From: Trueperaceae bacterium
Lineage (GTDB): Bacteria; Deinococcota; Deinococci; Deinococcales; Trueperaceae
Assembly (NCBI GenBank): GCA_024642575.1
Contig: JAHEBB010000001.1
Location: 1-48,039, forward strand
Direction of reading: 5' to 3'
DNA: 48,039 bases
Made by a program: the position numbers and the translations under genes. The notes under the pieces are model-generated. The model made no database searches. It saw only the letters and a list, made by a program, of their open reading frames with translations, and was not told the DNA's origin. Positions 1 to 48,039 of the stretch are shown here, piece after piece; position 1 is the stretch's first letter; every line of letters begins with the position of its first letter.

Positions 1-691
1 CTAAAGGACTTACAGGTGTTGCAATAAGCGCTTCCATCGTGCCAAGTTCTCGCTCTCTAACAATAGCGAGGGCAGTGAGCAAGCAGGCAACTATGGTCAA
101 AATAAGACCGATGAGTCCAGGGACCATGTAAACAGCGGTGCGGTTATCTGGGTTATAAAGAAGCTCTATGGTTGGTTTAACAGGTGGGGTAAAGCCTGAC
201 CCTGTAAGGGAACGACCTGCAACCAGTTTGCTGCTTAAATCTTGTACAGCGGCATTGGTTGCCGCCCGAATCTGAGCTGAAAGGCTAGGGTCAGAGCCAT
301 CGACATAAAGTTTAAAAGGCACAGAATCACCTTTTCGGGCAGCACCTAGTGCGCCTGCAGGTATATCAAGAATAGCTCTAACGCTCGCACTATTCATCAA
401 GCTTTGCCCTTCAGCAAAACTACTTACAGAAATAGGCTTAAAGCGCTCTTCATCGCTAAAGGCTTTGATCATGGCTTCACTAATGCGGTCTTGCGACTCA
501 TCTAAAACGGCTAGGCGGATGTTTTTGACCGAGGTATTAAGGGCAAAGCCAAAGAGTAGCAGAAGTGCAAGAGGGAAAATAATGATAAGAGGGGGTAAAA
601 TGGGGTCGCGGCGAATTTGAAAGAGTTCTTTGCGGGCAACTGCGGCTACTTGCATGACTAGGCTAGCGCGAAAAGGTTTAGGAAAACTCAT
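1..691 (-). CDS. ABC-2 type transporter permease; about 230 N-terminal aa are present and the 3' part runs off the window
   Basis: My own translation of the minus strand from the ATG at 691 gives MSFPKPFRASLVMQVAAVARKELFQIRRDPILPPLIIIFPLALLLLFGF, then a long soluble loop, then a second TM segment (VYMVPGLIGLILTIVACLLTALAIVRERELGTMEAL). This is the YbhS/YhhJ-like ABC-2 layout. The ATG overlaps the TGA of the upstream ATPase gene (ATGA at 688-691). It is absent from the ORF track because it is open at the window edge. Confidence 0.75.
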   Translation of the reverse strand, partial: MSFPKPFRASLVMQVAAVARKELFQIRRDPILPPLIIIFPLALLLLFGFALNTSVKNIRLAVLDESQDRISEAMIKAFSDEERFKPISVSSFAEGQSLMNSASVRAILDIPAGALGAARKGDSVPFKLYVDGSDPSLSAQIRAATNAAVQDLSSKLVAGRSLTGSGFTPPVKPTIELLYNPDNRTAVYMVPGLIGLILTIVACLLTALAIVRERELGTMEALIATPVSPL

Positions 692-1602
692 AAACTTGCC
701 TCTTTTAAACTTCCGCCTGAAGCCAGATGTACAAAGCTATCTTCTAAACTTGGCATAACAGGCTCGAGCTGCTTACCTTCAAGCTCAGTTTCGTGCAGGG
801 GGCTTAGACTGCTTAAGCGCACACTGTTACTACTAATCCAGGCATCGCGAACATCGTCAAGTTGCCTTGCTGCCTTAAGACCTTCAGAAAGATTGTCAGG
901 CTCGAGCCGATAAAAATAGCCAGGGGTGGCTCTCCGTAGCGATTCAGGTGTTCCCTGAGCCAGCACCTTGCCACTGGCAATCATCGCAAGCTGATGACAA
1001 CGCTCAGCTTCTTCCATGTAATGGGTACTTACAAAGACCGTCACGCCTTCTAAGCTTAGAGAATAAATTAAATCCCAAAGTTCTCGGCGACCAATAGGGT
1101 CAACATTGGCAGTAGGTTCATCTAAAAAGATAAGGCTGGGGTGGTGAACCATAGCGGTACCTAAAAGAAGGCGTTGCCGCCAGCCTCCAGAAAGCTGGCC
1201 TGCTAGTACCTTGCGGTGTTCAGTTAAAGAAAAACGCTCGAGCACGTCTTCCACGGCAGCTTTTATTTCGCTTCTAGGCAGGTAAATCGAAGCCTTAAAG
1301 CGAAGATTTTCCTCAAGGCTTAAGTCATGGTAAACACTAGCTGCCTGATTGGCATACCCTATGGAAGCTTTCACGCTATCTGGTTCTTTAAGAGATATGC
1401 CAGCCACTGTTGCCGTGCCGCTGCTGGGTTTGGTTACGCCGCAAAGCATACGAATAGTCGTGGTTTTGCCCGCACCATTAGGCCCTAAAAAACCAAAAAC
1501 AATGCCCTTGGGCACGTTAAGGTTGAGCTTGTCCACTACAGGAATCTGCTGCCGACCTATGCGGTAGTTTTTGCTTAAATTCTGAGTTTCAATAGCATTC
1601 AT
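688..1602 (-). CDS. ABC transporter ATP-binding protein (ABC-2/DrrA-like exporter ATPase)
   Basis: Track ORF 688..1629. Walker A is GPNGAGKTT, the ABC signature is LSGGWRQRL and Walker B is LIFLDEPT. I place the start at the ATG at 1602 (MNAIETQNLSKNY) because a GGAG lies a few nt upstream. Confidence 0.9.
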   Translation of the reverse strand: MNAIETQNLSKNYRIGRQQIPVVDKLNLNVPKGIVFGFLGPNGAGKTTTIRMLCGVTKPSSGTATVAGISLKEPDSVKASIGYANQAASVYHDLSLEENLRFKASIYLPRSEIKAAVEDVLERFSLTEHRKVLAGQLSGGWRQRLLLGTAMVHHPSLIFLDEPTANVDPIGRRELWDLIYSLSLEGVTVFVSTHYMEEAERCHQLAMIASGKVLAQGTPESLRRATPGYFYRLEPDNLSEGLKAARQLDDVRDAWISSNSVRLSSLSPLHETELEGKQLEPVMPSLEDSFVHLASGGSLKEASL

Positions 1603-1705
1603 CTTTAACTCCTTGAAGCATGTAAGCACTTACTTGCATTATGAAGAGCGTCTGGAGACAAGTCAAGGGCGCAGAGCATTAGAGATGATAAAAAGCTCGG
1701 GGCAG

Positions 1706-1742
1706 CAAAAAAAGAGGCATCCTTATTTCTAAAGATGCCTCT
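1706..1742 (-). terminator. Rho-independent terminator downstream of the aldo/keto reductase gene
   Basis: A 9-bp perfect stem, AGAGGCATC (1713-1721) with GATGCCTCT (1734-1742), encloses a 12-nt loop. The adjacent A7 run on the plus strand (1707-1713) becomes a U-run right after the stem on the minus-strand transcript. Confidence 0.7.
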
Positions 1743-1799
1743 AAGATAAAGCAATTAGCGAACCAGGCGCATCGCCAAGGGTTTAGACCCAAAAGAGAT

Positions 1800-2699
1800 T
1801 TAAGTGAGTTGTGCCCAGTCTTTGCCAAGTGAATCAAACCGTCTATGCAATTCAGCCACAACGCTTTCTGGTATGGGTAAGGCTTGACTCACCATATCAA
1901 TATTGGCTTTGACGTATTTTGGGGTTTTGGTGCCGACAATGGCTACATCTACAGCGTCATGGGCAAAGGTAAAGCCTAAAGCCAATAAAATGCGGTCGGC
2001 TGGCTCATTTTCAATAGGGCCAAGGGCACGCAGTTTTTGGGCGCGTTCAAAATAACCATCAGCATAGCCACTTGGACTGCTAGCCGCACCCCAGGCACTA
2101 TTGGCAATCGGGCGTTTGATAATAAGCCCCATGTTTTTTTCTTTAATTTTGTCAAACAGGCTGTGCCTGGCTTTTTGCTCAACCAGATTAAAGCTGGTTT
2201 GTAGCGTATCAAATACGCCACTGTTTACCGCCCAAACCGCTGCGTCATTGTCACCACTGTAGCCAATGTAGCGTATTTTGCCTTCTTGCTGAGCTTTTTG
2301 TAAGGCTTTTATGGCTTCGCCTTTTTCCAGAACCTCGAGGCTACAGGAGTGTAACTGCACCAAATCAAGATAGTCTGTTTTCATTCGTTTTAAACTGCGG
2401 TCGATGCTGTCGCTTATGGTTTTTGCCGTCCAGGGTTCGCCTTCGTAGCCACCTGCAATGTGACCTGCTTTGGTAGCTAGATAATACTCATTGCGTCTAT
2501 GAGCAACCGTTTGACCGACAAATTCCTCACTTACGTTATAACAGGCTGCGGTATCTAAAAAGTTAATACCTAAATCTAAGGCATTGTTAAGAACTTCGGC
2601 AGCTCGAGCCGTATCTATACCCCCATAACCAATTTCGGAAAGCCCTGCGCCAAGACGAGACACTAACATATCTGTTTTTCCTAATTGTCTTTTTTCCAT
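1800..2699 (-). CDS. Aldo/keto reductase family oxidoreductase
   Basis: 299 aa. The N-terminus MEKRQLGKTDMLVSRLGAGLSEIG, plus LGINFLDTAACY, YLATK, LDLVQLH and IRYIGYS, are typical AKR blocks. Confidence 0.9.
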   Translation of the reverse strand: MEKRQLGKTDMLVSRLGAGLSEIGYGGIDTARAAEVLNNALDLGINFLDTAACYNVSEEFVGQTVAHRRNEYYLATKAGHIAGGYEGEPWTAKTISDSIDRSLKRMKTDYLDLVQLHSCSLEVLEKGEAIKALQKAQQEGKIRYIGYSGDNDAAVWAVNSGVFDTLQTSFNLVEQKARHSLFDKIKEKNMGLIIKRPIANSAWGAASSPSGYADGYFERAQKLRALGPIENEPADRILLALGFTFAHDAVDVAIVGTKTPKYVKANIDMVSQALPIPESVVAELHRRFDSLGKDWAQLT

Positions 2700-2974
2700 G
2701 TTTGAGCATACCTTAAGGTTTATAGAGCTCTTTGCAATGTAGCTGTCAATCCTTGTTACCGAAGTAAAAGCTTATGTTTCAAGCGAGGCATATGACAGTA
2801 GCTGAGACCAGTGTTAATGTATAAAATTTCGCATTTCCGATTTAAAACATCCTAAAAAACGATTCATTTCATTTTGTAAAAGAAGTGTAACAAAGCTGGT
2901 TTAAGCTCGGCTCATGATTATTTCATCTCTTGCGTTCTGAAAAATCAAAATTGAAGGTATTGAAAGGAATTTTT

Positions 2975-3475
2975 ATGAAACGATGGGTCACCTTGCTGGT
3001 TTTTGTTTGTTTCTATGCCAATGCCCAGCAATCTCCCCTCGAGCTTAAGCTCGAGCGCTTTGTCATTACACAAGTTGAGCAAGAGGGTGAAATGACAGAG
3101 TTAAGAGCAGCAGCTTTTGAATCACGTCCTGGGGACATGATTGAAGAAGTGCTCACAGCTACTAACCTTACGGATAACGCCTTAGCGGGTGTCACGCTTG
3201 AAATACCTGTGCCTATAGGTAGCAGCTATATCGCTGATAGTGCCAGCGTACTTGAGAGTGGTGGCGAGACGATTGTTGCCCAGTTCAGTTTTGACAACGG
3301 CTCGAGCTTTGGATTTGCGCCGCTTTATAAAACCATTACGGTGGTTGAAGACGGTAAGGAGGTAACAAAAGAGGTCATAGTTGACCCAAGTGAGTACACC
3401 CATGTTCGCTGGCTTTTGCCGAGTTTTAGTGCGAATGCAGAACTTACAGCCCAATTTCGCGCTGTAGTCCGTTAG
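2975..3475 (+). CDS. Small secreted protein with one DUF11-like domain (cluster gene A)
   Basis: Track ORF 2930..3475 begins at a TTG. The ATG at 2975 gives MKRWVTLLVFVCFYANAQ/Q, a clean signal peptide. The body contains PGDMIEEVLTATNLTDNALAGVTLEIPVPIGSSYIADSA, which resembles the DUF11 / conserved repeat domain core. Confidence 0.6.
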   Translation: MKRWVTLLVFVCFYANAQQSPLELKLERFVITQVEQEGEMTELRAAAFESRPGDMIEEVLTATNLTDNALAGVTLEIPVPIGSSYIADSASVLESGGETIVAQFSFDNGSSFGFAPLYKTITVVEDGKEVTKEVIVDPSEYTHVRWLLPSFSANAELTAQFRAVVR

Positions 3476-3514: not shown

Positions 3515-6262
3515 ATGTTGCATTTTAATAAAGGCCTGTTGGTTCTATTTGCGCTGCTGCTCAGTTTTGCATTAGCAGTAGGTACACCAGCGGGTGAAGA
3601 AATTACCAACCAGGCGACGGCTAAATATACCGATTCTGGTGGTCAACAACAAACCACAAACTCAAACCAAGTTATTACGGTTGTTAAACAAATTTTTGGT
3701 ATTAACATCGTAGCTAACGGTACAACCACTGTGCCTGGTCAAAGCCAGGACAGCACGCCAGGTAGCACCGTTTACTATCCTTATACCTTAACCAATACGG
3801 GTAACGGCATTGATAGCTTTACCCTTAGTTCAGTCATTGATACCGATGAAACCAGTGATAATGGCAGTATCAGTACCCCTGTTTTTTATCTTGACCGTGA
3901 TGGGGATGGGGTCGTTGATGCAGGTGAAAGTCAGATAACAAGCGTTGCTGATTTGGCAGCTGACGCTTCGGTAAAACTCATTATGGCCTACCGTTTACCT
4001 ACCGGTGCTGATTCTGCCGATGAGGTTATTGCAACCCTTAAAGGCGTGAGTGTCAATGATCCAGCGGGTAGCCCAGCTAGCGATGAAAACAACTACCATT
4101 TGACCACAGTGGTTCAAGATGCCACGATTGTTGTTTCAAAGGCAGCCAGCGTGTCTGAGGTAGAACCTGGCGATACCATTACTTATACGATTACAGCAAC
4201 CAATACGGGCTCAAAAAATGCTACCACTGTAACCCTTACTGACGCTGCACCAACAGGTACCACTATGGTCTCAGCTTCAGTGACGACGATTCCTAGTGGT
4301 AATGCTGCTGATACCAGTGTGCCAGTTGGCATTTTCGCAACAGTTATTCCTGGACAGACGGTACAAATGAGCTTTAGTGTTACCGTAGATGCAGGCACGC
4401 TCCCCGGTAATATTGATAATAGTGCCAGTGTCAGTTTTGTCGATAGTACCTCGAGCACCAAAACCGTTACCACCAATACAACCACGACCCAAGTCCTAGC
4501 CAGTTACGATACTGCTGTTGGCCCTAAAGATGATCCTTTGGATGGTTTAGCTGGCGATAGCGCTACACCCGTGTCTTATACCAGCGCAGAAGGCTACACC
4601 ATTACCGCTGCCGATGATGATGACGAGCAAACAGTTGCTGAAGTCGATGCAGGCGACAGCATAAGTTTTGTCAACTCGGTTAAGAACCTTGGTACAGCAA
4701 CCGATACCTTCAATTTTACGCTTGATAATACGGCTTTAAACCTTTCCTCAGGTTTTTCTGTAGTCATTACCCGTCTTGATGGTACACCTTTGCCTGATTC
4801 TGATGGTGACGGTAACCCAGATAGTGGTCCTTTGGCCAGAACAGCTGAGTTCGATTTTGTCGTCAAGGTTTTCTTGCCCGCTTCTCAAGATGACAGCGAT
4901 GGTGCCACCACGGTGCATAGTGTCGTGCTAACGGCAACCTCAAAACAAGACAATACGCAAACGGATACGACCACCAATACCATTACCGATGTTAAAGGCC
5001 CTGGGGTTGATTTTGGTAACAATACCGACACCGATGTCGATGGTGCCGATGATGACACCGTAGATAGCGCATTAGCCGTCACCAAAACCCAAAACCCTGG
5101 CACCAAAGCGGTATTCCCCATGGATGTTGTTAATACAGGTAGCCGTTTAGATAGCTATGATTTAAGTGGTAGCGTGAGCTTTAGCAGTACTACAGGCGCT
5201 ACTTTGGCAGTAGCTGTGTTTTATTACCGTGATAGTGCTGATACTAATGGTGATGGTACCTTAAGCAGTGCTGAAATTGCTGCGGCTACGCCCATAACCA
5301 ATACGGGGCTTATTGATCCAGATGTTGATGCTGAAAAAACGGTGTTTGCGGTGGTTTCTATTCCGGCAACGGCGACACCCCAAACCGTAACCCTAAGTCA
5401 ATCAGCTAGCTCACCCTTAACAGGGGTTAGTATGGCCTTTAACCTTGACAGGGTAACGGTAAATGCAGTTAGAGATTTTAGCTTTAACCCTGATCGTAAC
5501 GGTACGATTCCAAGCCCAGGTACGATTATTTATCAGCATAGCGTTACTAATAACGGTAACTTAAACATTAGCGATTTAGATATTACTGAGTTAGCAAGTG
5601 GTAACACAACAGGTTGGACCTATCTGTACTCTTATAACGGCACAACCTATTTCCCAGCTGCTAGCATGCCGGCACCTACGGCAATTACCCCAGGCTCGAG
5701 CCAGACCATCTTTATTAAGGTCAATGCGCCGGCTGGTGTACCACGTAATGCAAACAATATTGTCACTGTGACTGCCGCTCCTACCTGGGGTAGTGAAGGT
5801 AGTTCTTCAGGTAGTGACGGTGTTACCGATACCACAACAGTTATTAGCGGTGAATTGACCGTTGTAAAAGAGTGGAGTGCTGATGGTGGCACAAATTGGT
5901 TTAAAGGCGATGGTACCGATGGTTCTACCCCACCAGAGGTAGCCCCAAGCGGTGACATCTTGTACCGTATGCGCATAACTAATATTGGTACGGCCAATGT
6001 CACAGCTACCTATTTGCTTGACTCAGTACCTACCTTTACTGACTATGTAACAGGTTCAGCCAAGTTTCAGACAACGCCGGGTGTTAGTGATAGCATACGC
6101 TGCTCAAACAATGGTGGCTCAACGTTTATCGTGATTTGTCCTGTAGCCTCGGGCTCGAGCCCCTTTAATGTTGATACAGCTGTTGACGCAGTTCGTTTCT
6201 ACATCGATAGTCTTAACCCAGGTGCAACCGTAGAAGTTCGTTTTACTGTCCGTATTCAATAA
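3515..6262 (+). CDS. Secreted DUF11-repeat protein, Thr/Asp/Ser-rich, 915 aa (cluster gene B; candidate major structural subunit)
   Basis: GGAGG lies 10 nt upstream of the ATG. The signal peptide is LLVLFALLLSFALA, followed by TPAGEEITNQATAKY. A textbook DUF11 core is present (VEPGDTITYTITATNTGSKNATTVTLTDAAPTGTTMVS), with further copies such as VDAGDSISFVNSVKNLGTATDTFNF and SGDILYRMRITNIGTANVTATYLLDSVP. EF-hand-like loops are DRDGDGVVDAGE and DTNGDGTLSSAE. Confidence 0.8.
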   Translation: MLHFNKGLLVLFALLLSFALAVGTPAGEEITNQATAKYTDSGGQQQTTNSNQVITVVKQIFGINIVANGTTTVPGQSQDSTPGSTVYYPYTLTNTGNGIDSFTLSSVIDTDETSDNGSISTPVFYLDRDGDGVVDAGESQITSVADLAADASVKLIMAYRLPTGADSADEVIATLKGVSVNDPAGSPASDENNYHLTTVVQDATIVVSKAASVSEVEPGDTITYTITATNTGSKNATTVTLTDAAPTGTTMVSASVTTIPSGNAADTSVPVGIFATVIPGQTVQMSFSVTVDAGTLPGNIDNSASVSFVDSTSSTKTVTTNTTTTQVLASYDTAVGPKDDPLDGLAGDSATPVSYTSAEGYTITAADDDDEQTVAEVDAGDSISFVNSVKNLGTATDTFNFTLDNTALNLSSGFSVVITRLDGTPLPDSDGDGNPDSGPLARTAEFDFVVKVFLPASQDDSDGATTVHSVVLTATSKQDNTQTDTTTNTITDVKGPGVDFGNNTDTDVDGADDDTVDSALAVTKTQNPGTKAVFPMDVVNTGSRLDSYDLSGSVSFSSTTGATLAVAVFYYRDSADTNGDGTLSSAEIAAATPITNTGLIDPDVDAEKTVFAVVSIPATATPQTVTLSQSASSPLTGVSMAFNLDRVTVNAVRDFSFNPDRNGTIPSPGTIIYQHSVTNNGNLNISDLDITELASGNTTGWTYLYSYNGTTYFPAASMPAPTAITPGSSQTIFIKVNAPAGVPRNANNIVTVTAAPTWGSEGSSSGSDGVTDTTTVISGELTVVKEWSADGGTNWFKGDGTDGSTPPEVAPSGDILYRMRITNIGTANVTATYLLDSVPTFTDYVTGSAKFQTTPGVSDSIRCSNNGGSTFIVICPVASGSSPFNVDTAVDAVRFYIDSLNPGATVEVRFTVRIQ

Positions 6263-6268
6263 ATGACT

Positions 6269-6290
6269 GTGGCCCCTTAACGGGGGCCAC
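6269..6290 (+). terminator. GC-rich hairpin between cluster genes B and C; possible partial terminator or attenuator
   Basis: GTGGCCCC (6269-6276), loop TTAACG, GGGGCCAC (6283-6290). It begins 7 nt after the gene B stop codon. A pyrimidine/T-rich tract CTCTCCTATTTTA follows, then the gene C ATG at 6303. Confidence 0.5.
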
Positions 6291-6302
6291 CTCTCCTATT
6301 TT

Positions 6303-34148: not shown

Positions 34149-34191
34149 ACCAATAAAGAATTCTCCGAAACCTCTTGAAGTATTATATTTC

Positions 34192-37340: not shown

Positions 37341-37347
37341 GAGGACT

Positions 37348-40419: not shown

Positions 40420-40550
40420 ATTATATAAATAAGGGGTTGAACTCAATTTTCCCATTTAAAAGTTTGGTGCTAGGGTTTAAGGGCGAAATACTTTGCGGTG
40501 TATTCAGTAGAAATTTCAATTCTTGTTGCTTGCCTTTTCTACCAACAGTC

Positions 40551-41648
40551 TCACTGAGCAGGGAAGGTATAAACATCTTGCTGATAAGCAATGCCCGTAT
40601 GCAATTCTCCGTCAAACTCGAAAAATGTAGCATTTTCCCAGTGGGAACCCTGTCCCCAAAGCGTAGAACATTTGGTTGAAACCCAGGCGGGCTCCCAGTA
40701 AATGACCCCCAACGCCTTACTTGTTATTAGACTTTGGCTTAAATCATGCATATAGCTGCGTTGACCCTCTGAGGTTATAGGGTAGTCTTTTAACCCCTCC
40801 GTTAGAATATTGCTTGCGGTTTCTTCAACATAATCGAGCGTCCAGGGGTAGGCTGTTTCGACGATCATGACTTCTTTTTTGAACCGTTCGCGTAAAAATC
40901 CTACCTGCTCGGCTAAATCGGTGATACTAAAGCTGCTCCACTGAGGGTAATAAGAAATTCCAATAATGTCAAAGCCCTCGATCCCAGCTTTTTCCGCTTC
41001 CGTAAACCACCAGGTAGTATTTTCGGGCTGAGCTACGTGCAAAAGAATTTGAATACTGAGTTTATGGGTAGTAGAAAAATCTCTTACGGCGCGAATTCCA
41101 GCATTAAAAAGCTGAACATCCCTTGGCCAGTCAGATTTAATAATTTCTTTTAACATCCCAGAATTGGTTTCATTGCCAATTTGCACAAAATCAGGGGGTA
41201 AGCCTTCTTTATAGAGTTCGCTCATGACCTCTTGGGTATAGCTATATACGGCATTTGCTAAATCATTCGTAGTTTCAAGTGTTGCCCAGGCCTCTGGTAT
41301 AGTTTGCCTTCCTGGATCAGCCCAGGTATCTGAGTAATGAATGTCAAGCATCGTTGACATTCCAGCGTTTTTGGCTCGCCTGAAGGTTTTTTTGACATCG
41401 GATAGATTGCTATAGTTTGTCCAAGTTGGCGTATGCCAGAGTCTTGCCCTCACTAGAGTTGAGCCAAAATCGTGAAATAAGTTAAAAGGGTCTTGCGGTT
41501 CGCCTTTTACTTTATATATTGCGCCACAGTCTTCCATTTCATTGACGTAAGACAAATCAACCCCGAAGTAAAACATTGTTGCTCCTTCTTGTGCCTTAAT
41601 ACCCCCATAAAATAAGCAAAACAGACTTAAAGCTAGGATGACTTTCAT
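40551..41648 (-). CDS. Secreted GH53 arabinogalactan endo-beta-1,4-galactanase
   Basis: The signal peptide is MKVILALSLFCLFYGGIKAQ. Motifs are FGVDLSYVNEME, ARLWHTP, DIHYSDTWADPG, VQIGNETNSGML (acid/base Glu) and IVETAYPW (nucleophile Glu). Confidence 0.85.
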   Translation of the reverse strand: MKVILALSLFCLFYGGIKAQEGATMFYFGVDLSYVNEMEDCGAIYKVKGEPQDPFNLFHDFGSTLVRARLWHTPTWTNYSNLSDVKKTFRRAKNAGMSTMLDIHYSDTWADPGRQTIPEAWATLETTNDLANAVYSYTQEVMSELYKEGLPPDFVQIGNETNSGMLKEIIKSDWPRDVQLFNAGIRAVRDFSTTHKLSIQILLHVAQPENTTWWFTEAEKAGIEGFDIIGISYYPQWSSFSITDLAEQVGFLRERFKKEVMIVETAYPWTLDYVEETASNILTEGLKDYPITSEGQRSYMHDLSQSLITSKALGVIYWEPAWVSTKCSTLWGQGSHWENATFFEFDGELHTGIAYQQDVYTFPAQ

Positions 41649-42288
41649 AGTGGCTTACCATACTCTGTGAGGAGCTTAAGATTCCAGTAGCTTAGAGAAT
41701 TAGTGTGTGTGTGATCTGTTGTCGGTAGAATTTACCCAATACGCATAGCTTTCTCTGAACGGGGCTCGAGCCACTATCTGAAATACTTTAACTTTCAAGT
41801 AGCCAATAAATTCAGATTGCTTAAGGTCACTGGCTATGAACTTAAGGGCTCTTTATATAGGGCAGACGTTTAGGGAAAATCGGCTAGGGTAGCTTGGGTC
41901 GCAAGGCATAATATGACATCAAGCAGTTGGCAGCCATACTTTAATCTCAGAGATCAATTCCCGAGACTTGCCTCGAAACAAAGGTGCGTCAAGGTAAGCA
42001 AAGCTTACGAGATTATTCTTATTACTATGGGCTTGCCGCGGGAAATTTTTGTTTAACATAAGCAGCCATTTTATAAACGGTCATCAAGTAATGATTTCGT
42101 AGGTTACGGTAAATGGGCTTTGAAAACCCGTGCTATTTGATATGGGTTACGTTCCTGATTGGTAATTTCTACCTAAAAGGTGTTTTCTAAGTGCAAAATA
42201 GCAATATATTTTCGGCTGTTTGCCTTATTTGTTTACTTAATAAAACCCTTTGATTGGAAATAATTCAAACTAACAAGTAGACTGTTTT

Positions 42289-42312
42289 AATTAAGGGCTC
42301 GAGCTCTTAATT
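42289..42312. promoter_or_regulatory. 24-bp near-perfect palindrome centred on CTCGAG, just upstream of the peptide-SBP RBS
   Basis: AATTAAGGGCTCGAGCTCTTAATT has one mismatch between its arms. The GGGAGG RBS starts 2 nt downstream and the ATG is at 42325. It could be an operator or a 5'-UTR hairpin; the function is unknown. Confidence 0.3.
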
Positions 42313-42324
42313 TGGGAGGTCACG

Positions 42325-43908
42325 ATGCTTCGAAAATATCTCGTTGCAACTTTATTTTGTCTTACGTTTTTCCTGCTTAGTATTTCATTGGCACAAGGTG
42401 AATTGGTCGTGGGTTTGCAGGGAGATATCGTAGCGGTTGACCCTGTTTATGCCTATGATTTCACTGCTAACCCAGTGGTTTGCCAAATTACTGAAGGACT
42501 ACTTCGTTTTGAAAATGGGGAAACGCTAGCCCCAAATTTGGCCGAGAGCTGGGAGAACCCTGACCCATTAACGTACATTTATCATTTGCGTCAAGATGTG
42601 ACCTTTCAAGATGGCAGTCCCATGACTATCGATGATGTTATTTTTAGTATGGAACGTACCCGTAACCCAGAAACAGCCTCTTATGTTGGCTGGATGTATG
42701 ACAGTGTCGATACGATAGAAAAAGTAGATGACTGGACGATTAAAGTTAGTCTTAAGCAACCCGATGCTCTCTGGCAGTATGTTCCTGCTACAACAGCCGG
42801 TCATGTTATAAGCAAAGCCTATTATGAAGCCCACAAAGATACGTTTGGTAAACCCGAAGGTGGTCTCTTGGGCACAGGGCCTTTTAAGTTTATGAGCTGG
42901 TCAACGGGTAGTGAGATTGATCTGGAAAAATATGATGGCTACTGGAATAAAGCTAACGGTGGCCCTTATCTAGACAAGCTTACCTTTAAAATTTTACCTG
43001 AAGCTACGACTCGCATTGCTGGTTTGCAAACGGGGGAAGTACAAGCTCTTTTAGGGACAGACTCTACACCTGCTGATCAATTGCCCATTGCCATGAAAAT
43101 GGACAATATCACGGTTGACTTTCAAGATAGCTACCTGACCTATTTTATAGCCTTTAATACTCAGCGCCCACCGTTTGATAATGTCAAGGTTCGTCAAGCG
43201 CTAAATTATGCTTTAGACAAAGTTTTACTGACCCAAAATCTTTATCCTGTTTCGGATGCTGTCAGCGTAGCAAAAGCGGTTGACGTTATGCCAAGGCTCT
43301 GGACATTTGAAAAAGATAAATGGCAAGCAGCCTATGATGCTTTACCTGATTATGCCTTTGATATGGATAAGGCAAAGCAACTTTTAGAAGAATCAGGTGT
43401 CGCAGATGAACTTAATGGCAAAGTTATTACCACTGACGAAAACCCCTTAACTTTAGGAATGGCGTTGGCATTGCAGGCAGCTGCGGCTGAATTAGGCTAC
43501 GAATTAGAAATTAATAAAGTTACCTTCCAGGAATCCATCAGCTTGGCCTTTAGTGGTGCACGCGATTATGATATTTTACCCATTCCTTGGGGTTCAGATT
43601 TTCCTGATCCATCAGGTAATTTGCTGCCTGTTTTTCACTCGAGATATGTGGGTGATGGTGGCTCAAACTTTGGTAATTATGTCAATCCAGAAGTAGATAA
43701 GCTCTTAGATGATGCAAACAGTTTAACCGACAATGCTGAACGTACAGATTTAATGGTCCAGGCTGAACAAATCATTGCTCAGGACTCACCTTGGATTGTG
43801 ATTTTGCACCCTAAACAAACCTTTGTACTCAACAATGACTTTGAAGGCTATACGATTACCCCACTTTGGTACTGGGATGCTTTTGCCAAAGACATTAAAA
43901 TGAAATAA
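42325..43908 (+). CDS. Peptide/nickel ABC transporter substrate-binding protein (family 5, DppA/OppA-like)
   Basis: 527 aa. The signal peptide is LFCLTFFLLSISLAQG. Typical family-5 blocks are LVRFENGETLAPNLAESWE, TFQDGSPMTIDDVIFS and YDGYWN. Confidence 0.9.
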   Translation: MLRKYLVATLFCLTFFLLSISLAQGELVVGLQGDIVAVDPVYAYDFTANPVVCQITEGLLRFENGETLAPNLAESWENPDPLTYIYHLRQDVTFQDGSPMTIDDVIFSMERTRNPETASYVGWMYDSVDTIEKVDDWTIKVSLKQPDALWQYVPATTAGHVISKAYYEAHKDTFGKPEGGLLGTGPFKFMSWSTGSEIDLEKYDGYWNKANGGPYLDKLTFKILPEATTRIAGLQTGEVQALLGTDSTPADQLPIAMKMDNITVDFQDSYLTYFIAFNTQRPPFDNVKVRQALNYALDKVLLTQNLYPVSDAVSVAKAVDVMPRLWTFEKDKWQAAYDALPDYAFDMDKAKQLLEESGVADELNGKVITTDENPLTLGMALALQAAAAELGYELEINKVTFQESISLAFSGARDYDILPIPWGSDFPDPSGNLLPVFHSRYVGDGGSNFGNYVNPEVDKLLDDANSLTDNAERTDLMVQAEQIIAQDSPWIVILHPKQTFVLNNDFEGYTITPLWYWDAFAKDIKMK

Positions 43909-44029: not shown

Positions 44030-44968
44030 ATGACCAGCTATATCCTTAAGCGCTTGCTAGCTCTAATTCCCATCCTGATATTTACCTCATTTCTGGTATC
44101 AACCTTGGTACGTCTTACGCCAGGCGACCCTGCTCTAATCATGGTTGGGGGCAGGCGCACCTCTCCTGAGATCTTACAAGCCATTCGCCATCAATATGCC
44201 CTGGATAAAAGTGTTCTCGGTCAATATGTCTTTTGGGTTGGTAATGCTGTTAGAGGAAACTTAGGAGAAAGCTTTAGGCTAAAGCAAAAAGTCTCGAGCC
44301 TTATTGCAGCTCGTTTACCTATTACGATGCAGCTAATTATTTTCAGTGGCGTATTATCCTTGGTCATCGCTTTGCCTTTGGGCATTCTTGCCGCAGTGTA
44401 CAAAAATACTTGGGTAGATTATCTGGCAACCTTAGTAAGTTTGCTGGGCATGTCCTCACCTGTTTATTTTAGTGGGATTGTCTTCATTTTGATTTTTGCC
44501 TATACCCTGGATTGGTTCCCAGCTTTAGGTGCAGGAAAAGGGCTTTGGGACAGGCTTTATCATCTCATTTTGCCCTCGAGCGTATTGGCCTTAAACATGG
44601 CGGCGCTTACCTCGCGTATGACCCGCTCATCTATGCTAGATGTTTTTGGAAATGATTACATTACGGTTGCTAAAGCAAAAGGACTTGCCTGGCGCAGAGT
44701 CGTGTTACGTCATGCCTTTCGCAATGCCTTGATTCCTGTGGTGACCGTAGCTGCTTTGCAATTAGGTTTCTTATTTGTGGGGAGTGTATTGGTTGAATTC
44801 ACCTTTGGTTTAGGGGGATTAGGGAGTTTGATTACTGATGCTATACAAAACCGCGATTACCCGGTGGTACAAGGAACAACGCTCTTTTTGGTGACGGTTT
44901 TTGTACTTTTAAATCTTGTCACGGATTTGCTTTATATGGTCATTGACCCCAGAATCAGGTATGGCTAA
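44030..44968 (+). CDS. Peptide ABC transporter permease (DppB/OppB-like)
   Basis: 312 aa. The N-terminus is YILKRLLALIPILIFTSFLV. The EAA region is DYITVAKAKGLAWRRVVLRHAFRNALIPV. The C-terminus is DLLYMVIDPRIRY. Confidence 0.9.
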   Translation: MTSYILKRLLALIPILIFTSFLVSTLVRLTPGDPALIMVGGRRTSPEILQAIRHQYALDKSVLGQYVFWVGNAVRGNLGESFRLKQKVSSLIAARLPITMQLIIFSGVLSLVIALPLGILAAVYKNTWVDYLATLVSLLGMSSPVYFSGIVFILIFAYTLDWFPALGAGKGLWDRLYHLILPSSVLALNMAALTSRMTRSSMLDVFGNDYITVAKAKGLAWRRVVLRHAFRNALIPVVTVAALQLGFLFVGSVLVEFTFGLGGLGSLITDAIQNRDYPVVQGTTLFLVTVFVLLNLVTDLLYMVIDPRIRYG

Positions 44969-45837
44969 TGCTAAGTCTAGAAAAGGCTCGAGCCTCTACC
45001 CTTAAAAAACCATTTTGGCGTTCACCCTTTTTTCGTAACCGTACCGCAGTCTTAGGCAGTTTGTTATTAATCTTGCTTGGCTTTGCTTCACTGGCTGCTC
45101 CTTGGGTAAGCAACTATAATCCAGTAAAACAAGATATGACCAGCTCGCTTCAGGCACCGACTAAGACTCACTGGCTCGGTACTGATAAACAAGGGCGAGA
45201 CACCTGGAGTCGGGTAGTTTATGGCTCGAGGCCCACCTTGCTCGGGGCACTATTTGTGGTGCTTATTGCCTATCTTATTGGGGTTCCTTTAGGACTGATG
45301 TCTGGCTACTATGGGGGACGCATGGATACTCTTATCATGCGAATACTAGACATGTTACTTGCGTTTCCTGCATTATTGCTGGCTATTTTGATTGTTGCCA
45401 CTTTTGGGCGCGGACTTGTGAATACGGTTATTGCTCTGGGTATTGTTTATATTCCAGCCATAACTCGCGTGGTGCGAAGTGCTACGCTGGTTCAGCGTAA
45501 TCTTAACTATGTTGAAGCTGCAAAAGGAAGTGGAATGGGCGATGCTCGGATTCTATTTCGGCACCTTTTGCCCAACGTAGCTTCACCTATACTTGTACAA
45601 GGCAGTAATGATTTAGCCTATGCGATTTTAGATATTGCGGCTCTTTCCTTTTTGGGCTTGGGGATCCAACCCCCTGATCCAGACTGGGGTTCTATGCTAG
45701 CTGAAGGTCGTTCGTTTTTACTTTTATCTCCTTACGTCTCTATTTTTTCTGGTTTGGCTATCATGATTGCGGTTATTGCTTTTAATTGGTTTAGTGACGG
45801 CCTGCGCGCGCAGCTAGACCCAAAACAGCGAAAGTAA
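44968..45837 (+). CDS. Peptide ABC transporter permease (DppC/OppC-like)
   Basis: 289 aa. The EAA region is NYVEAAKGSGMGDARILFRHLLPNVASPI. The start overlaps the upstream stop codon (TAATG). Confidence 0.9.
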   Translation: MLSLEKARASTLKKPFWRSPFFRNRTAVLGSLLLILLGFASLAAPWVSNYNPVKQDMTSSLQAPTKTHWLGTDKQGRDTWSRVVYGSRPTLLGALFVVLIAYLIGVPLGLMSGYYGGRMDTLIMRILDMLLAFPALLLAILIVATFGRGLVNTVIALGIVYIPAITRVVRSATLVQRNLNYVEAAKGSGMGDARILFRHLLPNVASPILVQGSNDLAYAILDIAALSFLGLGIQPPDPDWGSMLAEGRSFLLLSPYVSIFSGLAIMIAVIAFNWFSDGLRAQLDPKQRK

Positions 45838-45946: not shown

Positions 45947-46852
45947 ATGGCAGTACCTTACCCATTTAAAGAAGGTAAAATTAGTTTTAAGGGTTATAAC
46001 ACCTGGTACCGAATTGTGGGTGAAAAAGAGGAGTCAGGTAAATTTCCCCTACTTTGCTTGCATGGTGGGCCAGGTGTGCCCCATGACTACCTCGAGTCTT
46101 TAGAGGCTATGGCTGCTACAGGCCGCAGGGTTATTTTTTATGATCAACTGGGTTGTGGTAACTCTGACCATGTAGATGACCCTGCTATGTGGACGGTTGA
46201 TTTGTTTGTTGAAGAAGTTGATGTAGTTCGCAAAGCTTTAGGTCTGGATCAGCTTCACATCCTAGGTCAATCATGGGGTGGCATGTTAACGATGCAGTAC
46301 ATGCTAACACAGCCTAAGGGGGTAGCGAGTATCACTATTGCAAGTTCACCCTCGAGCATTCCAATGTGGCTTTCCGAAGCAAATCGTTTGCGCGCTGAAT
46401 TGCCTAACGAAGTACAAAAAACGCTTCTAAAGCATGAAGATGCCGAAACCACCAATGACCCTGACTACCTTGCAGCTATGCAAGTATTTTATGATCGTTA
46501 TGTTTGCCGTGTTGTTCCTAATCCACCTTATGTGCAACGAGCCTTTGCCAAACTGGGAGAGTGGCCACAGGTTTATCACACAATGAATGGCCCTAGCGAG
46601 TTTCATGTGATTGGTGTGATGAAAGATTGGGATGTGACCGCACGCCTTGGTGAAATCAAAGTACCAACCCTGGTAACGACGGGGCGCTTTGATGAGGCCA
46701 CGCCGTTAATTGGCGAAACGGTGAATAAAGGGATTAAAGGCTCTGAGTGGGTAATTTTTGAAAAGAGTGCGCACTTAGCTCATGCTGAAGAACCTGAAAG
46801 GTACATGGCAGTCTTGGCAGACTTTTTGGCGAGAGTAGAAAGTAGTGCTTAA
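45947..46852 (+). CDS. Proline iminopeptidase-family alpha/beta hydrolase (S33), paralog 1
   Basis: AGGAGG lies upstream. Motifs are LHGGPGVPHDYLESLE, the nucleophile elbow GQSWGG, and a catalytic-His region SAHLAHAEEPERY. Confidence 0.85.
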   Translation: MAVPYPFKEGKISFKGYNTWYRIVGEKEESGKFPLLCLHGGPGVPHDYLESLEAMAATGRRVIFYDQLGCGNSDHVDDPAMWTVDLFVEEVDVVRKALGLDQLHILGQSWGGMLTMQYMLTQPKGVASITIASSPSSIPMWLSEANRLRAELPNEVQKTLLKHEDAETTNDPDYLAAMQVFYDRYVCRVVPNPPYVQRAFAKLGEWPQVYHTMNGPSEFHVIGVMKDWDVTARLGEIKVPTLVTTGRFDEATPLIGETVNKGIKGSEWVIFEKSAHLAHAEEPERYMAVLADFLARVESSA

Positions 46853-47734
46853 ATGAAAACACAAGAAGGAATGATTCAAGTAGATGGCTATCAGGTCTGG
46901 TATCGCCGTATAGGCGAAGGAGGTATACCTCTTTTAACCTTGCATGGTGGACCCGGAGCTGGGCATGACTATTTGGAAAGCCTGGAGGCTTTATCTGCTA
47001 TTCGTCCTATTATATTTTTTGACCAACTTGGTTGTGGTAAATCAGATCAGCCTAATGACCGCTCGCTTTGGAAAATACAGCGTTTTGTTAAGGAGGTAGA
47101 TGTCGTTAGGCAGGTACTAGAGTTAGATCAGATTCATTTATTAGGTCAGTCTTGGGGAGGTTGGCTAGGTATTGAATATATGCTCTCTAATCCAAAAGGT
47201 ATTTTGAGTCTTACACTAGCCTCTACTTCTGCCAGTATGCCGCAGTTTATTGCAGAAACCAAGCGCTTAAAATCTGAACTTCCCTCAGAAGTTTATCAGA
47301 CTATGCTGAAATATGAAGCAGCTGAAGACTATCATCATCCTGACTACGAGGCAGCTGTAATGGAGTTTTATAAACGCCATGTCTGCAGACTGGAAGCTTG
47401 GCCAGATTGTCTACTTAGAACTGTGCAAAACTTTGAGGGTAACGCTGTTTATGAAACCATTAATGGTCCCAACGAATTTACTGTAATTGGTAATCTCAAA
47501 GACTGGAATCGGATTGATCGATTACATGAAATTACGGTACCTACCCTGATTACTGTTGGGCGCTATGACGAACTTACCCCTGCTTGTGCTGAAACTATGA
47601 GGCAGGGTATCACAGGTTCACAAATGCATATTTTTGAGCACAGTTCCCACAGCTCCCATCTGGAAGAACCCGAAAGATATATGGCTGTTTTGGCAGATTT
47701 TTTGGCAAGGGTTGAAAGTGGGATGCTTCATTAA
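46853..47734 (+). CDS. Proline iminopeptidase-family alpha/beta hydrolase (S33), paralog 2
   Basis: The ATG directly abuts the paralog 1 stop codon (TAAATG). Motifs are LHGGPGAGHDYLESLE, GQSWGG and SSHSSHLEEPERY. Confidence 0.85.
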   Translation: MKTQEGMIQVDGYQVWYRRIGEGGIPLLTLHGGPGAGHDYLESLEALSAIRPIIFFDQLGCGKSDQPNDRSLWKIQRFVKEVDVVRQVLELDQIHLLGQSWGGWLGIEYMLSNPKGILSLTLASTSASMPQFIAETKRLKSELPSEVYQTMLKYEAAEDYHHPDYEAAVMEFYKRHVCRLEAWPDCLLRTVQNFEGNAVYETINGPNEFTVIGNLKDWNRIDRLHEITVPTLITVGRYDELTPACAETMRQGITGSQMHIFEHSSHSSHLEEPERYMAVLADFLARVESGMLH

Positions 47735-47789
47735 AACGATACTACTTTGTCAGGATTTGCACAGACTGATTGGTTATTGCTAGCGACCT

Positions 47790-47885
47790 TCAAGGCTCGA
47801 GCCAGTGCTCCACCTTATAGCCATATTTCTTTTCAATTGAGGGAAAATAAGAGGCTGGGCCTTTTGGCTTGTCTTCATTTGCCAT
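47790..47885 (-). pseudogene. 31-codon ORF with a DUF4287-like N-terminus; either a truncated remnant or a small protein
   Basis: My own translation gives MANEDKPKGPASYFPSIEKKYGYKVEHWLEP*. AAGGAG lies 7 nt upstream of the ATG. The SYxxSIEKKxG motif resembles the start of DUF4287 proteins, which are considerably longer. The frame stops just after a GGCTCGAGCC decamer. Confidence 0.3.
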
Positions 47886-48039
47886 AAGTAAACTCCTTGA
47901 ATTTAGACCATTTTTGTAATGAAACTGCCAAGACACGATGGCTGTCTACTGACCAGGCTTAACCTCGAGCCCACGAAGCAGGGGAGTCGGCTGTAGCGTT
48001 GGTTAGCAGTTAGTCTCTGCGCTTTAATTCGTCGGGTGT

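Follow-up and report, generated by a model that had tools for sequence, protein, structure and literature searches.

The palindromes closest in behaviour to the element described here are the highly iterated palindromes (HIPs) of cyanobacteria. One of them, HIP1, was described three decades ago, and what it does is still under debate, with chromosome structure, methyl-directed repair and DNA uptake as the candidates. HIPs reach densities of 1,000-2,000 copies per Mb; each HIP-bearing cyanobacterium was found to possess a cognate methyltransferase, and a ratchet based on methyl-directed repair was proposed to multiply the sites (Elhai 2015, PMC4390886). Xu 2018 (PMC5861425) argued for selection rather than replenishment in the case of HIP1 and favoured a role in chromosome structure, while recent preprints connect HIP1 with genes for DNA uptake and with a methylation-dependent efficiency of transformation (bioRxiv 10.64898/2026.06.24.733823; 10.1101/2024.09.10.611283). 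A solitary methyltransferase that recognises CTCGAG was described in Nocardia (Blow 2016, PMC4752239). Since all known HIPs occur in one phylum, their phylogeny and function are inseparable. Here we analyse a CTCGAG-centred palindrome dispersed over 48,039 bp (44.75% G+C) of a Trueperaceae genome (assembly GCA_024642575.1, contig JAHEBB010000001.1, positions 1 to 48,039), a stretch which we call the window and to which all window counts refer. The window is 91% coding, and its 31 open reading frames (ORFs) of at least 100 amino acids are ordinary chromosomal genes. We are highly confident that the palindrome is a HIP-type motif, acting at the DNA level, lineage-wide and under continuing pressure.

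Abundance, shape and coding context of the word

Exact counting gave 97 copies of CTCGAG, 50 of the octamer GCTCGAGC and 12 of the decamer GGCTCGAGCC in the window, the same figures that a preliminary description of this DNA had offered as approximate. Its list of start positions is exact for 94 of the 97 sites and contains three slips (6954 stands for 6944, 22314 for 22313 and 39229 for 39219); its statement that most of the remaining sites retain one flank holds for 39 of the 47 sites that are not octamers. The densities are 2,019 hexamers and 1,041 octamers per Mb, i.e., about two hexamers and one octamer per kb, and CTCGAG ranks first among all 6-mers of the window and GCTCGAGC among all 8-mers. 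Base composition predicts 9.2 hexamers, 0.46 octamers and 0.023 decamers, an order-2 Markov model predicts 7.7, 0.87 and 0.049, respectively, and dinucleotide-preserving shuffles yield 5.8 +/- 2.6 hexamers (maximum 11) and 0.42 +/- 0.67 octamers (maximum 3). The hexamer is thus in 12- to 17-fold excess (97 against 5.8-9.2) and the octamer in 58- to 119-fold excess (50 against 0.42-0.87), which agrees, at about 100-fold, with the earlier estimate of two orders of magnitude and roughly one octamer per kb.

The preliminary description had also reasoned that an observed-to-expected ratio near 1 for GCTCGAGC under a Markov model of order 5 to 6 would speak against the element. Such ratios were formally obtained (43.1 and 49.8 octamers expected at the 5th and 6th order, 50 observed), yet they are uninformative in 48 kb, because nearly all occurrences of the 6- and 7-mer sub-words belong to copies of the motif; at this scale a high-order Markov model is not a valid means of refutation. 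The value of 49.8 is the product 71 x 68 / 97, which means that, given the core, the choice of G on the left does not depend on that of C on the right. As to the ladder of shorter words, CTCGA and TCGAG each exceed by about 1.9-fold the expectation from their own sub-words and CTCGAG does so by 1.28-fold, so that the excess is spread over the ladder and the unit that cannot be reduced further is the hexamer, each of its flanks being preferred separately. Within CTCGAG fall 97 of the 163 TCGA tetramers of the window.

When the 97 sites are aligned on the core, the flanks give the logo a-G-G-CTCGAG-C-C-t, in which the preference weakens outward (G at -1 in 73% and C at +1 in 70% of the sites, G at -2 in 46% and C at +2 in 43%, A at -3 in 42% and T at +3 in 37%) and disappears past +/-3. 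The left and right flanks are mutually independent, and the preference is identical in all three reading frames and in the spacers, where five of the six sites carry both the G at -1 and the C at +1. In the sites read as CTC-GAG, the G at -1, a third codon position, amounts to 70% against a background of 18%, and the C at +1, a first codon position, to 66% against 20%; the residue following a motif-encoded Leu-Glu is Pro, Leu, Arg or His, and the one following any other Leu-Glu is Gly, Ala, Ser or Val. Flanks that are mirror-symmetric whatever codon position they occupy point to a two-fold-symmetric agent that recognises double-stranded DNA. An abundant homodimer that organises the nucleoid or chromosome, with a footprint of about 12 bp, roughly regular density and no involvement of methylation, would suit a symmetric preference fading over three bases beyond the hexamer better than a 6-bp enzyme does, and it was a chromosome-structure role that was favoured for HIP1 (Xu 2018, PMC5861425). 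However, the gaps between sites (mean 492 bp, median 339 bp) are exponential and display no regularity at the scale of the window, there is no candidate protein, and the closest relative (L001, see below) has no flank preference although its core is equally enriched, so that we regard such a protein as a very improbable cause of the motif.

The word is not a fragment of a longer dispersed repeat. A repetitive extragenic palindrome (REP) or a miniature inverted-repeat transposable element (MITE) would be expected mostly outside genes and as a conserved unit of 20-40 nt or more, whereas here the information is gone by +/-4, no sequence is conserved beyond about 12 bp and 91 of the 97 sites are genic. 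The most frequent 12-mer occurs three times and the most frequent 14-mer twice, and the repeat families detected around the sites consist of the motif plus chance flanks.

The 91 genic sites are read as CTC-GAG in 56 cases, as xxC-TCG-AGx in 27 and as xCT-CGA-Gxx in eight; the other six lie in spacers. The examples of the three frames in the preliminary description (at 3038, 3301 and 9420) are all correct, and so are the five spacer sites named there, to which 47796 has to be added as the sixth. Since 58% of the sites (56/97) encode Leu-Glu as a pair of codons and CTCGAG is widely used for cloning, the enrichment could be suspected to be an artefact, produced by codon or dipeptide usage, by a dispersed repeat of the REP or MITE kind, or by XhoI cloning linkers or contamination of the assembly. 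We consider this extremely unlikely. Shuffling of synonymous codons within each gene, which leaves the proteins unchanged and retains the codon usage, inflated as it already is, gave 10.4 +/- 3.1 hexamers (maximum 20) against the 92 seen, and 1.2 octamers against 46; together with the word's occurrence in the two other frames and in spacers, this excludes a codon or dipeptide artefact, and the flank symmetry agrees; that the word is no codon artefact had been maintained in the preliminary description. CTC-GAG encodes 56 of the 142 Leu-Glu dipeptides (39%), while codon usage predicts 2.7-4.3%, and, once the motif is set aside, CTC is used for Leu less than any other codon (8.5%). Leu-Glu itself ranks fourth among the 265 dipeptides by over-representation (1.48-fold, compared with 1.05-fold for Glu-Leu). 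Against linkers and assembly errors, which the preliminary description had named as a way for its reading to fail, speak the location of sites in frame within conserved genes, in columns common to independently assembled public metagenome-assembled genomes (MAGs), and the enrichment of the word in seven other assemblies that come from different projects.

Relatives, orthologs and upkeep of the sites

In a scan of GTDB species, the relatives of the window proteins did not exceed 79% identity. The closest locus, L001, belongs to 'uncultured Trueperaceae bacterium MFD04651.bin.2.182' (42% G+C) and is syntenic with the window at 34.3-40.2 kb, over six genes with 59-79% amino-acid identity. CTCGAG is 5- to 18-fold over the order-2 expectation in seven further independent assemblies from uncultured organisms, of lower G+C (41-60%) and at unrelated loci, all related to the window or labelled Trueperaceae (Deinococcota). 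L001 has 37 copies in 21 kb (1-21296) against 2.2 expected, and no octamer; L018 ('Trueperaceae bacterium HKST-UBA01', 48% G+C) has 47 against 2.6, with GCTCGAGC as its top 8-mer. Seven copies against 0.4 are found in L023 (41% G+C), six against 0.4 in L031 (about 41%), and 49 against 7.0 in L084 (52.5%), where the word is the top 6-mer and 8-mer. L081/L082 (60% G+C) has 15 copies in L081 against 3.0 and nine octamers in 6.5 kb, the octamer being its top 8-mer, while L085 (50%), with three copies in 1 kb against 0.2, is too short to judge alone. The motif-bearing relatives span three unrelated loci, namely a GH4 operon, a phytochrome locus and the rplM-rpsI region. L081/L082 holds the best homolog of the window phytochrome (58%), and L081 carries rplM-rpsI; the nearest named relatives of its L13 protein are all Trueperaceae MAGs, though the L13 identities do not settle whether the motif-bearing lineages are one clade. 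The phytochrome homologs were rejected as a taxonomic guide, as past the best match they are mostly cyanobacterial, at 47-50% identity. In L001 the flanks are random (C at +1 in 26%) and GCTCGAGC has 0 copies, while the core is as enriched as in the window, which indicates that the extended word evolves between lineages and the core stays.

Strong enrichment was not seen in the high-GC Trueperaceae loci L087-L093 or in the named MAG contigs L284, L286 and L287/L288, where CTCGAG is 1.4- to 2.4-fold over the order-2 expectation. As three named MAGs are among these high-GC members, the motif cannot be ascribed to the whole Trueperaceae. In the other loci examined (Chloroflexota and others), CTCGAG did not go beyond composition.

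Three further observations concern the word and its relatives. A CTCGAG within rpsI (ribosomal protein S9) is found at the same position in L081, L085, L087, L088 and L089, at offset 563 from the rplM start (560 in L085), and spans lineages of 50 to 74% G+C, including loci that are otherwise unenriched. GATC is strongly avoided in the window (67 copies against 183 by composition, 0.49 of the maximal-order expectation); its observed/expected ratio is 0.19-0.55 in every motif-bearing relative and 0.8-3.0 in the motif-free Trueperaceae loci, so that CTCGAG enrichment and GATC avoidance co-occur. Some viral contigs of IMG/VR with 64-71% G+C (L231, L228, L242, L256, L180 and others) have CTCGAG scattered along them at 5-7 per kb. 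In L231 (IMGVR_UViG_3300045256_000857) it is the top hexamer, with 92 copies in 12.4 kb, 9.8-fold over order 2 (GAGCTC: 1 copy); this contig looks temperate, encoding an S24 repressor, a helicase and a DnaC-like protein. A truncated N6_Mtase-like ORF of L231 was rejected as a candidate methyltransferase, being devoid of the catalytic NPPY motif, and nothing similar occurs in the motif-bearing loci. Phage methylases of the beta class are present in other viral contigs.

Codon alignments were made for the six genes syntenic between the window and L001 and, with ten taxa, for the GH4 gene. The six genes contain 17 sites in the window and 15 in L001; eight of the 17 window sites fall in the same column in L001, against 11.9% for other hexamers (P = 3.5e-4), and within amino-acid-identical contexts seven of nine sites do so, against 23% (P = 8e-4). 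However, at the 11 aligned positions where both lineages have Leu-Glu, CTCGAG is used six times in the window, seven times in L001 and four times in both, and independence predicts 3.8. Sharing of sites equal to that under independence need not mean inheritance, and the alignments suggest that the two lineages are each saturating the positions that permit the word. In GH4, a universally conserved Leu-Glu-Leu is written with CTCGAG by every one of the five motif-bearing taxa and by none of the remaining five, and a conserved Arg-Ser-Arg is written xxC-TCG-AGx in three taxa, all of them motif-bearing. At other GH4 sites the protein itself has changed to Leu-Glu, from Leu-Asp in the window and L018, from Leu-Lys in the window and from Arg-Glu in L018. 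Judging from these alignments, a comparison which the preliminary description had proposed, sites arise both by synonymous change and by amino-acid replacement (D>E, K>E, R>L).

The core is all-or-none. Its one-mismatch variants have observed/expected ratios of 0.53-1.39, within the normal spread of hexamers, and the G...C flanks accompany seven of 115 of them, against a background of 5.3%; as these variants show neither the flank signature nor an excess, there is no reservoir of half-made sites and no pool of decayed ones. The last point would be expected if lost sites were restored, and the motif could then be a neutral by-product, without a function, of very-short-patch or mismatch repair tied to CTCGAG, which converts near-cognate sequence and restores mutated sites. 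Sites that override the protein (D>E, K>E, R>L) and inflate Leu-Glu are drive-like, the sharing of sites between lineages matches independent saturation, and a similar ratchet was proposed for HIP1 (Elhai 2015, PMC4390886). However, the T:G-to-C:G precursors are not depleted (CTTGAG/CTCAAG 42 against 33.4, or 1.26; TTCGAG/CTCGAA 13 against 11.7, or 1.11), which does not fit a by-product of the very-short-patch type, at a power limited by the 48 kb. Moreover, every one-mismatch variant lies within the normal hexamer range, neither a repair nor a methylase gene was seen in the scanned loci, and for HIP1 selection was favoured over replenishment (Xu 2018, PMC5861425). All in all, we hold a functionless repair by-product to be rather unlikely, though it is the least unlikely of the alternatives considered here.

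We find it still more doubtful that CTCGAG serves as an uptake or self-recognition signal, preferred, perhaps in methylated form, by a competence or recombination protein and spread by molecular drive as in the DNA uptake sequences (DUS) of Neisseria and the uptake signal sequences (USS) of Pasteurellaceae. Cultured Deinococcota, e.g., Deinococcus and Thermus, are naturally competent, and the density of about 1-2 sites per kb and their presence within genes resemble those of uptake sequences; DNA uptake in Deinococcus and Thermus, though, is not known to be sequence-specific. Each spacer site stands alone, with no T-run after it and no hairpin around it, and the window contains no genes for a sequence-specific uptake receptor or for competence machinery. 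Recent work on HIP1 and methylation-dependent transformation (bioRxiv 10.64898/2026.06.24.733823; 10.1101/2024.09.10.611283) would favour this explanation; however, the known uptake words are asymmetric 9-12-mers, often paired in terminators and with enriched mismatch variants (PMC1939737), while CTCGAG is a palindrome, its spacer sites are outside terminator hairpins and its one-off variants are not enriched. On the grounds of the palindromic word, the single spacer sites without T-runs or hairpins and the one-off variants at 0.53-1.39, assignment to the class of DNA uptake sequences was rejected.

To return to the HIP-type motif, the pressure that maintains it acts on double-stranded DNA rather than on protein or mRNA, is symmetric, and is all-or-none for the core. 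Its preference for flanks is lineage-specific and its strength is sufficient to alter amino acids; it is present over a 20-point range of G+C content in related lineages and absent from other loci of the same family. The pressure for the exact hexamer is strong and continuing, and the data do not separate selection from repair drive. It writes and keeps CTCGAG wherever the coding sequence tolerates it, through synonymous choice at Leu-Glu, x-Ser-Ser/Arg and x-Arg-x as well as through conservative amino-acid replacement, and in the source genome it adds the symmetric flank preference aGG-CTCGAG-CCt, at random intervals in genes and spacers alike. The sites would be read by a sequence-specific DNA protein with two-fold symmetry, for which a solitary (restriction-less) CTCGAG DNA methyltransferase is the likeliest candidate by analogy with the cyanobacterial HIPs. 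Enzymes of the XhoI type include N6-adenine methyltransferases and also the 5-methylcytosine enzymes of BsuMI. An active restriction-modification target was rejected, as it would be avoided and CTCGAG is enriched 12- to 17-fold; enrichment being the opposite of the effect of active restriction, any enzyme involved is probably an orphan. The sites might be kept up through selection that favours a 'self' mark across the genome, or else through biased methyl-directed repair, which would turn near-sites into sites and bring back those that were lost, and the mark may serve self-DNA recognition in natural transformation or recombination, guidance of strand choice and repair, or organisation of the nucleoid. 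A HIP-type CTCGAG mark complete with a methyltransferase-type reader is, on this analogy, the explanation that we consider rather probable, with less assurance than the motif itself.

Several points weigh against it. Pfam scans of the 31 ORFs of the window revealed no methyltransferase, restriction enzyme or Vsr, and a motif screen with Pfam over about 160 kb of motif-bearing loci revealed none either, so that the methylation step is proposed by analogy. (Two methyltransferase candidates from the motif screen proved false, one being an alpha/beta hydrolase and the other an ORF without a family.) A methyltransferase specific for the hexamer would by itself leave unexplained both the three-base flank preference and its absence in L001. 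No short-range periodicity was detected, the gaps fitting an exponential distribution (Kolmogorov-Smirnov p = 0.13) in a window shorter than needed for the 10-90 kb periods reported for HIP1. The sharing of sites between lineages is no proof of inheritance or of site-specific selection, and the genome-wide extent of the motif in the source genome is inferred from its relatives, 48 kb of that genome having been analysed.

Individual sites and other features of the window

The coordinates below are those of the core hexamer, to which no strand is assigned; the strand in brackets is that of the host coding sequence (CDS) or ORF. A site within a single gene is read CTC-GAG unless another frame is given, and every site is a hexamer unless called an octamer or decamer.

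CDS 688-1629 (-) has sites at 763-768 (octamer, GGCTCGAGCT), 901-906 (decamer, GGCTCGAGCC) and 1237-1242 (octamer, CGCTCGAGCA), and CDS 1800-2699 (-) at 2334-2339 (ACCTCGAGGC) and, in the frame xCT-CGA-Gxx, 2603-2608 (octamer, AGCTCGAGCC). ORF 2930-3475 (+) follows with 3038-3043 (CCCTCGAGCT), 3050-3055 (octamer, AGCTCGAGCG) and, as xxC-TCG-AGx, 3301-3306 (octamer, GGCTCGAGCT).

The region 3515-19982 encodes four consecutive giant proteins of secreted or surface type (915-1,828 amino acids; DUF11, DUF6923, GEVED and SpaA-like domains). CDS 3515-6262 (+) is read as xxC-TCG-AGx at all of its sites, 4450-4455 (ACCTCGAGCA), 5695-5700 and 6154-6159 (both decamers, GGCTCGAGCC). In CDS 6303-9116 (+) the Leu-Glu frame is used at 6909-6914 (GCCTCGAGTT), 7047-7052 (AGCTCGAGTA), 7584-7589 (CGCTCGAGGC), 7923-7928 (GCCTCGAGCT), 8253-8258 (octamer, CGCTCGAGCC), 8493-8498 (GCCTCGAGGT) and 8832-8837 (octamer, TGCTCGAGCT), xxC-TCG-AGx at 6611-6616 (octamer, AGCTCGAGCT), 6944-6949 (octamer, GGCTCGAGCG), 8216-8221 (decamer, GGCTCGAGCC) and 8441-8446 (GCCTCGAGCG), and xCT-CGA-Gxx at 7300-7305 (octamer, CGCTCGAGCC). 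CDS 9113-14599 (+) contains 37 Leu-Glu dipeptides and 18 motif sites: 9278-9283 (AGCTCGAGAT), 9335-9340 (GGCTCGAGGA), 9707-9712 (AGCTCGAGGC), 10616-10621 (decamer, GGCTCGAGCC), 10988-10993 (octamer, AGCTCGAGCG), 11111-11116 (octamer, GGCTCGAGCT), 11147-11152 (octamer, AGCTCGAGCC), 12110-12115 and 12185-12190 (both octamers, AGCTCGAGCT), 12371-12376 (ACCTCGAGCC), 12884-12889 (GACTCGAGCC), 13244-13249 (ACCTCGAGCA), 13499-13504 (octamer, CGCTCGAGCA) and 14573-14578 (octamer, GGCTCGAGCT), then 11704-11709 (decamer, GGCTCGAGCC) as xxC-TCG-AGx, and 9420-9425 (octamer, TGCTCGAGCC), 10296-10301 (GGCTCGAGTT) and 11892-11897 (CGCTCGAGAG) as xCT-CGA-Gxx. A spacer site, 14648-14653 (GGCTCGAGTC), precedes CDS 14688-19982 (+), where 19155-19160 (decamer, GGCTCGAGCC), 19473-19478 (octamer, CGCTCGAGCT) and 19533-19538 (GGCTCGAGGC) are Leu-Glu pairs, and five octamers are read as xxC-TCG-AGx, namely 16286-16291 and 17552-17557 (both GGCTCGAGCG), 16922-16927 (AGCTCGAGCA), 17678-17683 (GGCTCGAGCA) and 18545-18550 (AGCTCGAGCC).

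The operon 19989-25026 (-) encodes a heme oxygenase, a bacteriophytochrome, a response regulator and a response-regulator/PAS/HisKA_3 kinase. After its best homolog at 58%, the phytochrome has homologs of 47-50% identity, mostly of the cyanobacterial Cph1 type, with one from Chloroflexota (Candidatus Chlorohelix). Sites of this operon are 20776-20781 (AGCTCGAGTT; xxC-TCG-AGx) and 21261-21266 (octamer, CGCTCGAGCC) in CDS 19989-21812 (-); 22313-22318 (GACTCGAGCC), 22533-22538 (octamer, GGCTCGAGCT; xxC-TCG-AGx), 22943-22948 (octamer, CGCTCGAGCT), 23795-23800 (octamer, GGCTCGAGCG), 24119-24124 (GGCTCGAGTT) and 24185-24190 (AGCTCGAGTT) in CDS 22256-24472 (-); and 24801-24806 (ATCTCGAGCT; xCT-CGA-Gxx) and 24877-24882 (GGCTCGAGGG) in CDS 24469-25026 (-).

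Further on, ORF 25349-25837 (+) has a decamer at 25819-25824 (GGCTCGAGCC; xxC-TCG-AGx), CDS 27405-28346 (+) has octamers at 27912-27917 (GGCTCGAGCT) and 28269-28274 (CGCTCGAGCA), and CDS 28482-29735 (-) has one at 28608-28613 (GGCTCGAGCA). The decamer 29892-29897 (GGCTCGAGCC) lies in a spacer. Then come 30778-30783 (CCCTCGAGTG) in CDS 30310-31116 (-), 32112-32117 (GCCTCGAGCT) and 33307-33312 (CCCTCGAGAA; xxC-TCG-AGx) in CDS 32037-33317 (-), and 33615-33620 (octamer, TGCTCGAGCC) and 33978-33983 (CGCTCGAGGC) in CDS 33387-34292 (-).

The GH4 gene, CDS 34348-35649 (+), has four sites. At 34480-34485 (octamer, GGCTCGAGCT) the change is K>E, with Leu-Lys in L001, L023 and three non-HIP taxa; at 34897-34902 (ACCTCGAGCC) it is D>E, Leu-Glu being found also in L018 and Leu-Asp in seven other taxa; 35253-35258 (CGCTCGAGAG; xxC-TCG-AGx) shares its column with L001 and L018; and 35275-35280 (octamer, AGCTCGAGCT) is the column that is CTCGAG in 5/5 HIP-bearing and 0/5 other taxa. 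In CDS 35651-36367 (+) all sites are read xxC-TCG-AGx, 35821-35826 (octamer, AGCTCGAGCC) and 36301-36306 (CCCTCGAGCT) being common to L001, and 36082-36087 (CCCTCGAGCA) being the third. CDS 36372-37340 (+) carries 36498-36503 (AGCTCGAGGC), 36894-36899 (TTCTCGAGCT; common to L001) and 37101-37106 (GGCTCGAGTC), and 37299-37304 (GACTCGAGGC), likewise common to L001, is situated in its overlap with CDS 37291-38466 (+), to which belong 37411-37416 (octamer, TGCTCGAGCC), 37612-37617 (CGCTCGAGGC) and 38360-38365 (octamer, GGCTCGAGCT; xCT-CGA-Gxx). The site 39219-39224 (GGCTCGAGGC) of CDS 38463-39338 (+) is common to L001 too, and 39995-40000 (TGCTCGAGTC) belongs to CDS 39335-40249 (+).

Two spacer sites follow, 41765-41770 (decamer, GGCTCGAGCC) and 42298-42303 (octamer, GGCTCGAGCT). 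The latter is the centre of a near-palindrome, AATTAAGGGCTCGAGCTCTTAATT (42285-42315), about 20 nt upstream of the start of a family-5 solute-binding protein gene (CDS 42325-43908, +), and this near-palindrome may be an operator. The gene itself has 43638-43643 (CACTCGAGAT), read xxC-TCG-AGx, as are 44293-44298 (GTCTCGAGCC) and 44575-44580 (CCCTCGAGCG) of CDS 44030-44968 (+). CDS 44968-45837 (+) contains 44987-44992 (decamer, GGCTCGAGCC; xCT-CGA-Gxx) and 45225-45230 (GGCTCGAGGC; xxC-TCG-AGx), and CDS 45947-46852 (+) contains 46091-46096 (ACCTCGAGTC) and 46351-46356 (CCCTCGAGCA; xxC-TCG-AGx). The last sites lie in spacer sequence, 47796-47801 (decamer, GGCTCGAGCC) after CDS 46853-47734, and 47964-47969 (ACCTCGAGCC).

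Five genes (21819-22259, 26039-27169, 31113-32024, 40551-41648 and 46853-47734) are free of CTCGAG, although two of them contain 4-5 Leu-Glu dipeptides; for any one gene the lack of sites is not significant (P ~0.1 per kb). They could be recent horizontal acquisitions, the word serving as a marker in the way HIP1 does.

As for other palindromes of the window, the ratio to the maximal-order expectation is about 0.5 for CCGG and GGCC, GTCGAC, ACTAGT, CGTACG and GGCGCC have 0 copies each, and CGATCG, GGATCC, GACGTC, TCCGGA, CCCGGG and GGGCCC have one copy each, against 6-14 by composition. This scarcity suggests a rich history of restriction-modification. TCGA outside CTCGAG is low as well, with 66 copies against about 183 by composition. 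One more feature is an intergenic direct repeat of 173 nt (30072-30244 and 40256-40428), whose copies are 87% identical, contain no CTCGAG and are situated in spacers flanking sugar-utilisation genes. It includes the GC-rich hairpin GCCCCAGC-GAAG-GCTGGGG, had no match in Rfam, and could be a small mobile element, a regulatory RNA or an operator.

Comparison with known systems

The full-text literature yielded no CTCGAG HIP, no CTCGAG motif of Truepera and no HIP in Deinococcota, and CTCGAG is absent from the HIP variants of Elhai 2015 (PMC4390886) and Xu 2018 (PMC5861425), in line with the preliminary description, which had not recognised the word as a described HIP. The element thus appears to be an undescribed HIP, new both in its word and in the phylum of its host. 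As to the broader proposition, that it is the first HIP outside cyanobacteria, a convergent 'self' mark of an uncultured branch of Deinococcota which rewrites codons and amino acids, evolves in its flanks and is switched on and off among lineages labelled Trueperaceae, we see about even chances of its being right. If it is, and if a cognate solitary methyltransferase tracks the on/off pattern, the clade is a natural experiment on the purpose of HIPs. A second, unrelated instance is an independent replicate, with a different word, a range of 41-60% G+C and loci of the same family without the motif, and a universal partner of HIPs could emerge when motif-bearing genomes are compared with motif-free ones in their genes for methyltransferases, repair and competence. 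On the practical side, the density of CTCGAG is a strong marker of the clade for binning and for horizontal transfer, and XhoI-based cloning of its DNA is affected. More generally, a DNA-level pressure can bias protein sequence, as seen from the 1.5-fold excess of Leu-Glu and from D>E and K>E.

In E. coli, CCWGG is reportedly over-represented through very-short-patch repair, as Bhagwat and McClelland are said to have shown in 1992. That case is similar in that a methyltransferase target is enriched by repair bias regardless of coding; it differs in being less than 2-fold and accompanied by depletion of T-precursors, against 12- to 100-fold without depletion here. The DUS of Neisseria and the USS of Pasteurellaceae (PMC1939737) also occur about once per kb and within genes in all frames, shape the choice of codons and amino acids, and are kept up by a sequence-specific protein; however, they are asymmetric 9-12-mers with inverted terminator pairs and enriched mismatch variants, none of which is found here. 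The solitary methyltransferase of Nocardia (PMC4752239) provides methylation of exactly CTCGAG without restriction, linkable to a cellular function, but its sites are concentrated at the origin of replication, where they lie between dnaA and the polymerase gene, and no genome-wide hyperabundance was described.

The alternate cyanobacterial HIPs (GGCGCC, GCsGC, GGGATCCC, rCCGGy, TCGATCGA and CAGGCCTG) are alike in that another palindrome replaces HIP1, at 1,000-2,000 per Mb, in particular lineages. None of them is CTCGAG; they are all cyanobacterial, and with each goes a matching methyltransferase gene (Elhai 2015, PMC4390886), which here is hypothetical. The marks by which Elhai 2015 and Xu 2018 recognise a HIP, namely the rank of top oligomer, the fold excess (at least about 15), dispersion and an identity between orthologs above that of controls, are all found in CTCGAG, and the 1,041 octamers per Mb of the window lie within the HIP range. 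HIP1 itself (GCGATCGC; Robinson 1995; PMC4390886; PMC5861425) has 0 copies in the window and its core CGATCG has one, and the nearest relatives of the window are labelled Trueperaceae. The preliminary description, which had seen HIP1-like behaviour in a different word, is supported in this and in each of its other testable parts. Like HIP1, the element is a GC-rich octameric palindrome consisting of a 6-bp core with G...C flanks; it is the top oligomer, at about one copy per kb and 50- to 100-fold in excess, occurs in all reading frames and in spacers without a longer repeat, is more often identical between orthologs than other words, and varies among lineages in its flank letters while the core is constant. 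The differences are the core (CGATCG in cyanobacteria, CTCGAG in a Deinococcota-like host), the G+C content of the word (75% in HIP1 and 62% here) and the cognate methyltransferases, which for HIP1 are known (DmtA and partners) and here are hypothesised.

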